DNA of 64,000 nucleotides. It comes from Escherichia phage vB_EcoM-BECP11. A program made the translations under genes and the position numbers. A model generated the notes under the pieces. The model saw only the letters and a program-made list of their open reading frames with translations. It ran no database searches and was not told the DNA's origin. This document shows, one piece after another, positions 39,958 to 43,346 of the stretch. The number at the start of each line of letters is the position of its first letter. Positions within the stretch are counted from its first letter, which is position 1. Where the stretch lies: sequence record MW286157.1, one strand, 5' to 3'.

Positions 39958-39987
39958 GTTTACTTTTCCTCTTGACTGTGGTATAAT
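39958..39987 (+). promoter_or_regulatory. T4-type early promoter for regB
   Basis: CTGTTTACT ... TGTGGTATAAT. Confidence 0.65.
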
Positions 39988-40483: not shown

Positions 40484-41029
40484 ATGAGAAAAGCACTACT
40501 CGCTGGTCTATTGGCCATTTCTATGATGGCACATAGCTCCGAGCATACTTTCAGTAATGTCCAACTCGATAACATGCGTTACGCGTATCAATTCGGGGAA
40601 CAGTTTTCTAAGGATGGAAAATATAAAACACATCAAAATGTTCATAAGAGTGGATTGGGTCATATAATGGCTGCTATTTTATGGCAAGAAAGCTCTGGCG
40701 GAGTTAATTTAAAATCTAAACCAAAGCATCACGCCTACGGAATGTTCCAAAATTATTTGCCTACTATGCGAGCAAGAGTTAAGGAACTTGGTTATAATAT
40801 GACCGATGCTGAAATAAAAAGAATGTTGAATAAACGGTCCAATTCAGCTTCCTGGGCGTACATTGAACTTTCTTATTGGTTAAATATACATAAGGGCGAT
40901 ATAAGAAAAGCAATATCCTCTTATAATTCGGGATGGAATGTTAAAGCAGGTTCTAAATATGCTTCTGAAGTCCTAGAAAAGGCTAATTACCTTAAAAATA
41001 ATAAACTTTTGGAAATAGTAAATGACTAA
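40484..41029 (+). CDS. secreted SLT-domain (lytic transglycosylase-like) protein
   Basis: Signal peptide MRKALLAGLLAISMMAHS; SLT motifs WQESSGG, YGMFQ, SYNSGWN. Confidence 0.7.
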   Translation: MRKALLAGLLAISMMAHSSEHTFSNVQLDNMRYAYQFGEQFSKDGKYKTHQNVHKSGLGHIMAAILWQESSGGVNLKSKPKHHAYGMFQNYLPTMRARVKELGYNMTDAEIKRMLNKRSNSASWAYIELSYWLNIHKGDIRKAISSYNSGWNVKAGSKYASEVLEKANYLKNNKLLEIVND

Positions 41030-41363
41030 AATTTTGGTTTTATGTATAGGATTAATTTCATTTTCTGCGTTAGCAGATACATCATATACTGAAATTAGAG
41101 AGTATGTAAACCGTACTGCAGCGGATTATTGCGGGAAAAATAAAGCATGCCAAGCTGAATTTGCGCAGAAATTAATATATGCATATAAAGACGGAGAAAG
41201 AGATAAATCAAGCAGATACAAAAACGATACATTGTTAAAACGATATGCTAAAAAGTGGAATACCTTAGAATGTTCAGTTGCGGAGGAGAAAGATAAAGCC
41301 GCTTGTCATTCAATGGTTGACCGTTTGGTAGATTCTTATAATCGAGGATTGAGTACTAGATGA
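41022..41363 (+). CDS. secreted protein at the T4 vs position (identity tentative)
   Basis: 113 aa with signal peptide MTKILVLCIGLISFSALA; placement by synteny only. Confidence 0.5.
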   Translation: MTKILVLCIGLISFSALADTSYTEIREYVNRTAADYCGKNKACQAEFAQKLIYAYKDGERDKSSRYKNDTLLKRYAKKWNTLECSVAEEKDKAACHSMVDRLVDSYNRGLSTR

Positions 41364-41839
41364 TTGTAAAATATATCAAGGGCGATATTGTCGCCCTATT
41401 TCTTCAAGGTAATATTATTGCGCACGGGTGCAATTGTTTTCATACTATGGGTTCAGGTGTAGCGGGTCAATTAGCAAGAGCCTATCCCAAAATTTTAGAA
41501 ATAGATAAAACCACTACTGAGTACGGTTCTCGTGATAAATTAGGCGATATGTCTATTGTTTTTAAACATAAACCTAATGGTTTTGGCATATGTTATAACT
41601 TGTACACGCAATACGAACCAGGTCCTAATCTTGATTATGGTGCTTTAGTAAACTGCATGATAGAATTAAATCTACAGGCAGAAACCCTTTTGTTTAAACC
41701 GGTAATTTACATTCCGCGTATAGGTTGTGGTATTGCTGGCGGCGATTGGGATAAGGTTTCTAAATTAATCGACATGTTTACTCCTGATATTGATTTAATA
41801 GTGGTGGATTATGAAAGTACATTACCCACATCCGTTTGA
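41360..41839 (+). CDS. macro-domain protein (ADP-ribose binding or hydrolase fold)
   Basis: 159 aa; N-terminal GDIVALF...NIIAHGCNCFHTMGSGVAGQL resembles macro-domain nucleotide-binding motifs; ATGA coupling. Confidence 0.65.
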   Translation: MIVKYIKGDIVALFLQGNIIAHGCNCFHTMGSGVAGQLARAYPKILEIDKTTTEYGSRDKLGDMSIVFKHKPNGFGICYNLYTQYEPGPNLDYGALVNCMIELNLQAETLLFKPVIYIPRIGCGIAGGDWDKVSKLIDMFTPDIDLIVVDYESTLPTSV

Positions 41840-42023
41840 TCCTAAAAACAAAGCAGTAATTATTCGTCAATGGGAACGCATTTGCCGTACTAAATGCCCA
41901 ATTAATAGTCCACATGATGTAGATAAAGACTACATTGGAACATTCGTTGAATATACCTTTATTGATAAGAAAGGTCGTAAACAACATGTAGAAGAATATT
42001 GCTTAAAGGTTACATGGTTATGA
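41811..42023 (+). CDS. hypothetical protein
   Basis: 70 aa ORF overlapping neighbours. Confidence 0.5.
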   Translation: MKVHYPHPFDPKNKAVIIRQWERICRTKCPINSPHDVDKDYIGTFVEYTFIDKKGRKQHVEEYCLKVTWL

Positions 42024-42226
42024 GCCAAACTAGTATTCTTAAAAATGCCCATTGTGAAAAGTGTAAGTGGCCGGTTGTTTTTGCTTTATGCAACGATGAA
42101 ATGACTTGTGATTTCGATTATTGGTGCTATTGCTCGAACAAGGGTTGTAGCAATCATAAAGGTGAAGGATTTTATTCTGGATTTAATCCTTATCCGGATT
42201 TCGTTAAAGAAGGTGAACCAAAATGA
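42020..42226 (+). CDS. small cysteine-rich (putative zinc-binding) protein
   Basis: 68 aa from ATGA-coupled ATG; CEKC...CNDEMTC...CYCSNKGC. Confidence 0.55.
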   Translation: MSQTSILKNAHCEKCKWPVVFALCNDEMTCDFDYWCYCSNKGCSNHKGEGFYSGFNPYPDFVKEGEPK

Positions 42227-42396
42227 ATAATTTTGAGTTACGCTATGAAGTTTTACGCAATATTGATAATTTAATTGAACTTGCCGTAAATAAGGGTTTT
42301 GCTATTGGAATTGGTCAAAAAGATACTGATCATTTAACGATGGAAATATTTAAGCAAAAGCGAATTATCTTAAAACTTCTAGGATTTAATATATGA
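42223..42396 (+). CDS. small hypothetical protein
   Basis: 57 aa ORF below the track cutoff, ATGA-coupled at both ends. Confidence 0.45.
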   Translation: MNNFELRYEVLRNIDNLIELAVNKGFAIGIGQKDTDHLTMEIFKQKRIILKLLGFNI

Positions 42397-42578
42397 GTCT
42401 GAGTAAAGAACAAAAAGACAAACTCTTTTCTCTTATCCACGAAGTTATGGATAAAAATAGCGAATTGGAAAAAGTTTGTAATGAATGCGGTCCTTTTAGT
42501 GCAAACGAGTACGAAGAACTTTCTAAAGAATTCGATAATAAAGAACAAGAACTCATTGATTATATAAATTCATTATGA
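42393..42578 (+). CDS. small helical protein, paralogue family member
   Basis: 61 aa MSLSKEQKDKLFSLIHEV...ELIDYINSL. Confidence 0.55.
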   Translation: MSLSKEQKDKLFSLIHEVMDKNSELEKVCNECGPFSANEYEELSKEFDNKEQELIDYINSL

Positions 42579-42763
42579 TTACTCGCGAACAAAAGAACGA
42601 AATATTATTTTTAGTTAGTGAAATTGTTAGTTTAGAAAAGGATTTGTCTTTTGAAATATCTTCTGAATATGGAGATGCCGAAACATATTACGAATTAGTA
42701 AAATCTATCGATAAAGCTGAAAATGATTTAGAAACATATTTAGAAAATTTAACTAAGGACTAA
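42575..42763 (+). CDS. small helical protein, paralogue family member
   Basis: 62 aa MITREQKNEILFLVSEIV...DLETYLENL. Confidence 0.55.
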   Translation: MITREQKNEILFLVSEIVSLEKDLSFEISSEYGDAETYYELVKSIDKAENDLETYLENLTKD

Positions 42764-42764
42764 G

Positions 42765-43346
42765 ATGGCGAGTTTAATTTTTACTTATGCAGCAATGAAT
42801 GCTGGAAAATCTGCTTCTCTTTTGACTGCTGCACATAATTATAAAGAACGTGGAATGGGTGTATTAGTTCTTAAGCCTGCTATTGATACTCGCGATTCTG
42901 TCTGCGAAGTCGTTTCTCGCATTGGAATTAAACAGGAAGCGAATATTATTACAGATGATATGGATATTTTCGAGTTCTATAAATGGGCTGAAGCACAAAA
43001 AGATATTCATTGCGTATTTGTAGATGAAGCTCAGTTTTTAAAAACTGAACAGGTGCACCAATTAAGCCGAATTGTTGATACATATAATGTTCCTGTTATG
43101 GCTTATGGATTAAGGACTGATTTCGCTGGAAAATTGTTTGAAGGTTCTAAAGAACTTTTAGCGATTGCAGATAAACTTATTGAACTAAAGGCAGTTTGTC
43201 ATTGCGGCAAAAAAGCGATTATGACAGCTCGATTAATGGAAGATGGAACACCAGTTAAAGAAGGTAATCAAATCTGTATTGGTGATGAAATTTATGTTTC
43301 TTTGTGTAGAAAACACTGGAACGAATTAACTAAAAAGCTCGGTTAG
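42765..43346 (+). CDS. tk: thymidine kinase
   Basis: 193 aa; P-loop NAGKSASL; C-terminal CHCGKKA...C zinc ribbon typical of TK. Confidence 0.9.
   Translation: MASLIFTYAAMNAGKSASLLTAAHNYKERGMGVLVLKPAIDTRDSVCEVVSRIGIKQEANIITDDMDIFEFYKWAEAQKDIHCVFVDEAQFLKTEQVHQLSRIVDTYNVPVMAYGLRTDFAGKLFEGSKELLAIADKLIELKAVCHCGKKAIMTARLMEDGTPVKEGNQICIGDEIYVSLCRKHWNELTKKLG

Follow-up and report, generated by a model that had tools for sequence, protein, structure and literature searches.

The window analyzed here is a 64,000-nucleotide stretch of Escherichia phage vB_EcoM-BECP11 (MW286157.1). One of the open reading frames listed for it, running from ATG to TGA, encodes a predicted protein of 159 residues that begins with MIVKYIKGDIVALFLQGNIIAHGCNCFHTMGSGVAGQL. 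The frame lies where an earlier note on this DNA had placed it, and the N-terminal string quoted there, KGDIVALF...NIIAHGCNCFHTMGSGVAGQL, is found in the translation. Over approximately 4 kb around the frame, the DNA shares 97–98.6% identity with many Tequatrovirus genomes, EC121, Sf24, and JK23 among them, and the window is a Tequatrovirus sequence. The local genes follow the T4 order regB, vs.1, vs, tk.4, tk.3, and, further downstream, tk.2, tk.1, tk, rI.1, and rI; those from regB to tk are all on the plus strand, with junctions that overlap or nearly abut. Its position between vs and tk.3 in this order identifies the frame as the T4 tk.4 ortholog. Feature coordinates are collected in Table 1.

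Table 1. Features of the tk.4 locus in window coordinates.
Feature	Position	Strand	Basis or description
tk.4 / adfM CDS	41360..41839	+	Single macro domain, 159 aa
Ribosome-binding region and start	41344..41363	+	Read from sequence: GAGGA 41344–41348, ATGA 41360–41363
H22-G23-C24-N25 codons	41423..41434	+	Family alignment (H22, N25 invariant); profile alignment
M30-G31-S32-G33 codons, first Gly-rich ADP-ribose-binding loop	41447..41458	+	Family and profile alignment
Q84 codon	41609..41611	+	Catalytic Lys position of DarG/TARG1, Gln85 of SCO6735; profile alignment
G122-C-G124-I-A126-G-G128 codons, phosphate-binding loop	41723..41743	+	Family alignment; 5e3b and 2afc alignments
Allele cassette	41400..41820	+	60-bp bins: 40–80% identity to T4 DNA, flanks 95–100%
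Candidate early promoter	39959..39987	+	Sigma-70-like TTTACT-17-TGnTATAAT, just 5' of regB

The GAGGA Shine–Dalgarno sequence lies 11 nucleotides upstream of the tk.4 start codon, which shares bases with the TGA of the preceding vs gene, an ATGA overlap that suggests translational coupling of vs and tk.4. At the other end, the tk.4 stop codon lies four codons further on than that of the T4 gene, and the overlap with the beginning of tk.3 (DUF7202) is thereby 29 nucleotides (41811–41839), compared with 4 nucleotides in T4. The additional C-terminal residues are modeled with low confidence.

Several neighboring genes have features of their own. The vs gene (41022–41363), annotated as "valyl-tRNA synthetase modifier", begins with a secretion-signal-like MTKILVLCIGLISFSALA, and vs.1 (40484–41029) has a signal-like start followed by an SLT lytic transglycosylase domain. 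If the signal-like start of the vs product is what it seems, export would be surprising for a protein whose target, a tRNA synthetase, is cytoplasmic. Relative to T4, a 367-bp insertion (42025–42391) lies between tk.3 and tk.2 and contributes two small ORFs, both annotated as hypothetical in EC121. The first (41999–42226, 75 residues) is Cys-rich and matches the Pfam family Phage_zn_bind (PF23895), and the second (42223–42396, 57 residues) matches PHROG 3452, a group of unknown function. Downstream of the insertion, tk.2 (61 residues) and tk.1 (62 residues), at 42393–42763, both match PHROG 653, as if one small gene had been duplicated in tandem.

The earlier note described the reading frame as part of an early cluster upstream of tk. 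Its location agrees with this description, with the thymidine kinase gene lying downstream (42765–43346) in the T4 gene order, whereas early polycistronic expression is a point that we infer only, because promoter-like sites in the region are no more frequent than in shuffled sequences in a consensus scan. The candidate promoter upstream of regB has 10 of 12 consensus matches and an extended −10 element; it could drive regB, vs.1, vs, tk.4, and the genes through tk as a single unit and is offered as a lead. The window contains 30 copies of the MotA-box-like motif of T4, WWTGCTTYA, where 12.9 would be expected, and none of 100 shuffles reaches that count. The nearest of them (42080–42088, plus strand) falls upstream of tk, within the zinc-binding ORF of the insertion.

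The tk.4 product was read in the earlier note as a macro-domain protein, and profile, sequence, and fold searches bear this out. Pfam Macro (PF01661), the profile that the note proposed as a check, matches at 33.1 bits, above its gathering score of 22 (E 6e-8, model positions 2–117 of 118). The protein also matches PHROG 335 (E 1e-71), and tblastn finds homologs in 2773 phage records. In a phmmer search of PDB sequences, all matches are macrodomains of a single class: BT1257 (2afc/2fg1) at E 1e-10, yeast Poa1p (6lfu) at 1e-9, SCO6735 (5e3b) at 8e-8, Mycobacterium tuberculosis (Mtb) DarG (5m3i) at 2e-5, and human TARG1 (4j5r) at 8e-3. A profile built from 58 homologs strengthens every one of these matches. 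An AlphaFold2 model on the same alignment has a mean pLDDT of 94.3 and a pTM of 0.89, with uncertainty confined to the last nine residues, and shows the three-layer alpha/beta/alpha macro fold. The top Foldseek matches of this model in the PDB are TARG1/OARD1 (4j5r; E 4e-10, TM 0.73–0.82), followed by Poa1p, BT1257, and DarG.

The motifs associated with ADP-ribose binding, namely the Asn, the first Gly-rich loop, and the phosphate-binding Gly loop, are all present, and the closest relatives by both sequence and fold (TARG1, DarG, SCO6735, and Poa1p) all fall in the ALC1/TARG1-like macro class. On sequence and model evidence, the tk.4 product is thus a member of this class and a predicted ADP-ribose binder. 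RefSeq labels T4 tk.4 as "phosphatase; contains A1pp phosphatase motif", and an A1pp (macro) match of tk.4 orthologs was reported in 2006 (PMC1524935). In one survey, 41% of myoviruses were found to encode macro domains (PMC9503650). The one bacterial relative examined, encoded on a Pelagimonas chromosome, is an orphan with no DarT next door, and another homolog is carried on a phage-like contig.

In an alignment of 58 diverse Tk.4-family homologs, G8, H22, G23, N25, C26, G33, A35, D49, N80, Y82, Q84, P119, G122, G124, and W130 are invariant, and M30, G31, G127, and G128 are conserved in at least 90%. Equivalences to characterized macrodomains come from a profile alignment in which the DarG, BT1257, and SCO6735 sequences were taken from printed PDB alignments, the SCO6735 numbering was checked against residues named in the SCO6735 paper, and the TARG1 sequence used is consistent with the printed PDB alignment. 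Plain MAFFT left a two-residue gap at the catalytic position, which the profile alignment and pairwise alignments with SCO6735 and BT1257 resolved. By these alignments, Q84 corresponds to K80 of TaqDarG, K84 of TARG1, Q85 of SCO6735, and Q82 of BT1257, and N25 corresponds to N22 of TaqDarG, N27 of SCO6735, and N23 of PhiKZ AdfM. H22 is equivalent to H24 of SCO6735 and H32 of TARG1, A126 to the catalytic D125 of TARG1 and to A130 of SCO6735, and G122 and G124 to G126 and G128 of SCO6735. In DarG and TARG1, the counterpart of the M30–G33 loop is the MGKG/MGAG loop.

Among the catalytic residues, which the earlier note had marked for checking, N25, Q84, and the Gly loops are invariant, and the Lys of DarG and TARG1 is replaced by Gln84. 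The Tk.4-family active site is thus the SCO6735 constellation, and both the DarG Lys and the TARG1 Lys/Asp dyad are absent.

SCO6735 (5e3b) and BT1257 (2afc/2fg1) are orphan Gln-type macrodomains of the ALC1 class with approximately 26–29% identity to the window protein, which, unlike them, is phage-encoded. SCO6735 cleaves thymidine-linked ADP-ribose off single-stranded DNA and shields Streptomyces against DarT; its Q85A and Q85E variants are inactive, N27S almost abolishes activity, and G128E reduces it (PMC9411070). For SCO6735, a water-mediated chemistry has been proposed in which Gln85 positions the distal ribose (PMC9411070). The Tk.4 product and SCO6735 have in common the Gln at the Lys position (Q84/Q85), the Asn that holds this Gln (N25/N27), the His (H22/H24), and a GCGxAGGxW loop, present in the window protein as G122-C-G124-I-A-G-G-D-W130. 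The GCGIAGG stretch of this phosphate loop has the same pattern as GCGLAGG of SCO6735 and BT1257.

The two proteins also differ. The DNA-positioning lysines of SCO6735, K34 and K89, are replaced by S32 and G88 in the window protein, and the longer loop that follows the Gln in SCO6735 is absent. PhiKZ AdfM, which is active on DNA, likewise lacks a Lys in the K34 column, where it has an Ala. The predicted isoelectric point of the window protein is 5.25, compared with 9.5 for SCO6735 and 5.05 for PhiKZ AdfM. An acidic pI was considered as an argument against a DNA substrate and was dropped, since the DNA-active PhiKZ AdfM is equally acidic.

Comparison with DarG itself sets the window protein apart from the antitoxin family. 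Against the DarG equivalog model (NCBIfam NF048014), its score is 27.8 bits, where the cut-off is 250, and it aligns to model positions 2–142 of 338; against the PADLOC DarG model, it scores 27.7 bits, T4 Tk.4 36 bits, and PhiKZ gp104 132.9 bits. The catalytic Lys80 of DarG (5m3i, 5m31, 7omu) is Gln84 in the window protein, which is also without the DarG-type C-terminal DarT-binding domain and has vs and tk.3, not darT, as neighbors. A captured DarG antitoxin is accordingly ruled out by a score of about 28 against 133 bits, the Gln in place of Lys, and the missing C-terminal domain. TARG1, which is active on thymidine-ADP-ribosylated DNA, resembles the window protein in the N-terminal YxKGD motif and the PRIGCG loop. 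Its K84/D125 dyad corresponds to Q84 and A126, and a TARG1-type Lys/Asp mechanism is ruled out because both residues are absent. SCO6735 thus provides a tested mechanistic precedent for the Tk.4 family despite the failed tests of DarG membership.

PhiKZ gp104, also named AdfM, and Tk.4 (the T4 allele) are both phage-encoded orphan macrodomains that counter DarTG2. PhiKZ AdfM removes DarT2-made ADP-ribose from DNA in vitro, and mutation of the conserved active-site Asn lowers its activity, with an N23A construct given in the methods (PMC13309987, Cell Rep 2026). It is a true DarG-like copy, with a match to Mtb DarG at E 9e-25 and the Lys present in an FPTK motif, and a BLAST comparison with the window protein aligns just 33 residues at E 0.001. 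Since gp104 is DarG-like and barely alignable to the window protein, the name AdfM spans two independent macrodomain lineages.

A phenotype of tk.4 has been described in T4. Transposon sequencing of T4 on a DarTG2-expressing host returned tk.4 as the sole significant hit, a clean deletion sensitizes T4 to DarTG2, and the gene was renamed adfM, for anti-DarT factor Macrodomain (bioRxiv 10.1101/2025.11.20.689424). The authors of that preprint describe Tk.4 as structurally similar to Mtb DarG and state that it "seems likely" that ADP-ribose is removed enzymatically from DNA (bioRxiv 10.1101/2025.11.20.689424). The phenotype fits the observation that T4 is still resistant to DarTG2 when it lacks both adfA and adfN, the latter being gene 30.3, whose product is a guanine-ADPr-specific NADAR enzyme (PMC11825919). 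The infection of DarTG hosts with a deletion mutant, proposed in the earlier note, has therefore already been carried out for the T4 ortholog, with a sensitive mutant as the outcome, and the idea that the protein erases a host-imposed ADP-ribose mark is supported by this DarTG2 sensitivity of the knock-out (bioRxiv 10.1101/2025.11.20.689424). None of the results obtained here speaks to Thoeris signaling, which the note had also raised.

The tk.4/adfM product is probably an SCO6735-type macrodomain that removes DarT2-derived ADP-ribose from phage DNA and so cancels DarTG2. This reading joins the fold, orthology, and residue conservation observed here to the T4 deletion phenotype and the thymidine-ADP-ribose hydrolysis by SCO6735 described in the literature. 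For the 57%-identical window allele, the same activity is inferred, with catalytic removal as the putative mechanism. The protein would be made early in infection, together with the products of regB, vs.1, vs, and tk, and would bind the ADP-ribose that host DarT2 places on N3 of thymidines in single-stranded phage DNA. Hydrolysis of the N-glycosidic bond would then restore replicable DNA and cancel the DarTG2 defense. Q84, held by Asn25, may position the distal ribose while a water molecule performs the chemistry, an arrangement that would replace the lysine of DarG and TARG1.

Hydrolysis need not be the sole mode of action of the tk.4 product, because dead SCO6735 (Q85A) inhibits DarT in vitro by interaction, and does so more than dead DarG or dead TARG1 (PMC9411070). 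The Tk.4 protein could thus neutralize DarT2 mainly without catalysis, by binding and inhibiting the toxin or by shielding ADP-ribosylated DNA, and the human ALC1 macro domain has a Gln (AQH) at the position of Q84. The ALC1 macro domain is a binding module and not an enzyme. However, invariance across the 58 homologs extends to N25, Q84, and both Gly loops, an enzyme-like pattern that toxin binding would not need, and this invariance favors catalysis over non-catalytic inhibition of DarT2. The protein is also a single domain of 159 residues without a DarG-like DarT-binding C-terminal domain, and the DarT2 variants met by phages are many, while removal of the toxin's product is independent of the variant. 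We regard a mainly non-catalytic action as quite improbable.

The resemblance to Poa1p points to another kind of substrate. The Tk.4 product might act mainly on a small ADP-ribose derivative, either as an ADP-ribose-1''-phosphate phosphatase (the old A1pp assignment, Poa1p-like) or as a hydrolase of O-acetyl-ADP-ribose or of an immune signal. A weak A1pp phosphatase activity is seen in vitro for many macro domains whose role lies elsewhere. Among the Poa1p residues probed in deposited mutant structures, H23 aligns with H22 and is conserved, S30 aligns with T29, and F152, mutated in a deposited F152A structure, aligns with A126 and is thus an Ala in the window protein. The only recorded phenotype of the ortholog concerns DarTG2 specifically, and this system modifies DNA; the closest structural relative is of the SCO6735 group, a DNA/RNA-base ADPr hydrolase. 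A small molecule as the main substrate is therefore given little credence here.

DNA is also not the only macromolecule on which this class acts, as SCO6735 and TARG1 hydrolyze uracil-ADPr on single-stranded RNA and Glu/Asp-linked protein ADPr (PMC9411070 for SCO6735). The Tk.4 product might accordingly de-ADP-ribosylate RNA (N3-uracil) or protein (Glu/Asp marks, or the products of Alt, ModA, and ModB) instead of DNA, which we consider very unlikely. T4-type phages encode three ADP-ribosyltransferases, and Alt, ModA, and ModB modify arginine. The substrates recorded for the macro class in the literature consulted here are Glu/Asp esters or the N3 of thymine and uracil; arginine-linked marks lie outside this range, so that reversal of the phage's own Alt, ModA, and ModB marks, which the earlier note had brought into view, is unlikely and finds no support. 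A bacterial toxin producing U-ADPr RNA was not found in the literature consulted here, in which bacterial RNA-base ADP-ribosylation (by CmdT, on adenine) is called irreversible. To our knowledge, there is no bacterial source of RNA uracil-ADPr or protein Glu/Asp-ADPr marks directed against T-even phages, and DarT2 acting on DNA accounts for the T4 phenotype.

The reading preferred here, removal of DarT2 ADP-ribose from phage DNA, draws its phenotype from the T4 allele, and the window allele differs from it at 43% of residues. The window protein (159 residues) and T4 Tk.4 (NP_049723, 155 residues) are 57% identical (E 1e-69), and both genes lie between vs and tk.3. The two proteins share all family-invariant residues, including H22, N25, and Q84, but their phosphate loops differ, with GCGIAGG in the window protein and GAGIGKG in T4 Tk.4. 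The divergence is sharply bounded at the DNA level: identity to T4 recovers immediately on either side of the cassette listed in Table 1. Megablast with the divergent body finds 305 full-length alleles of the window type and 225 of the T4 type in phage records, and both allele classes are thus common within Tequatrovirus. EC121 and JoYop are two of the phages with the window-type allele.

A neighbor-joining tree places the window type among homologs from other Tevenvirinae genera (Dhakavirus, 74%) and puts the T4 type on a long branch of its own. Within the window-type class, dN/dS is 0.04–0.06 (about 0.05) and dS reaches 0.33–0.38, values that indicate strong purifying selection on an old lineage. 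Diversifying selection as the source of the divergence between the T4 and window types is unsupported, given the dN/dS of 0.04–0.06 within the window-type class. The low dN/dS, together with the tree placement, instead points to old lineages swapped by recombination.

A terminator-like hairpin (41379–41397, plus strand) spans tk.4 codons 7–13 and sits just before the point at which the two alleles diverge. It has a perfect 8-bp GC-rich stem (AGGGCGA-TAT/TG-TCGCCCT) followed by a T-rich run, and the RNA has a predicted energy of −12.9 kcal/mol, with a z of −2.9 relative to shuffled sequences. T4, JoYop, and a Dhakavirus all have this stem unchanged, even though the loop and nearby synonymous sites vary, and orthologs from Karamvirus, Mosugukvirus, Jiaodavirus, and Biquartavirus lack the hairpin. 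Its role could be that of an attenuator or of a site for RNA processing, or it could mark a boundary of recombination.

The two tk.4 alleles may also be functionally unequal, with different substrate or toxin-variant specificities and with cassettes exchanged under host-dependent selection. Such differences could concern DarT2 sequence contexts, uracil-ADPr on RNA, or another host transferase. This proposal is doubtful; if true, the T4 result would not transfer to the window allele.

The gene and its function are already known, the macro domain since 2006 and the anti-DarTG2 role since 2025, and the gene brings nothing new in kind. The refinements made here, which are a Gln-type SCO6735-like active site, separate origins of the two AdfM proteins, and a sharply bounded two-allele polymorphism, are useful and incremental. 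T4-type AdfM is of the Gln SCO6735 type and PhiKZ AdfM of the Lys DarG type, and the DarG mechanism should not be assumed in mutational or inhibitor work on the T4-type protein. Tequatroviruses hold two old, strongly conserved tk.4 allele classes, and the one that has been tested is the T4 type.
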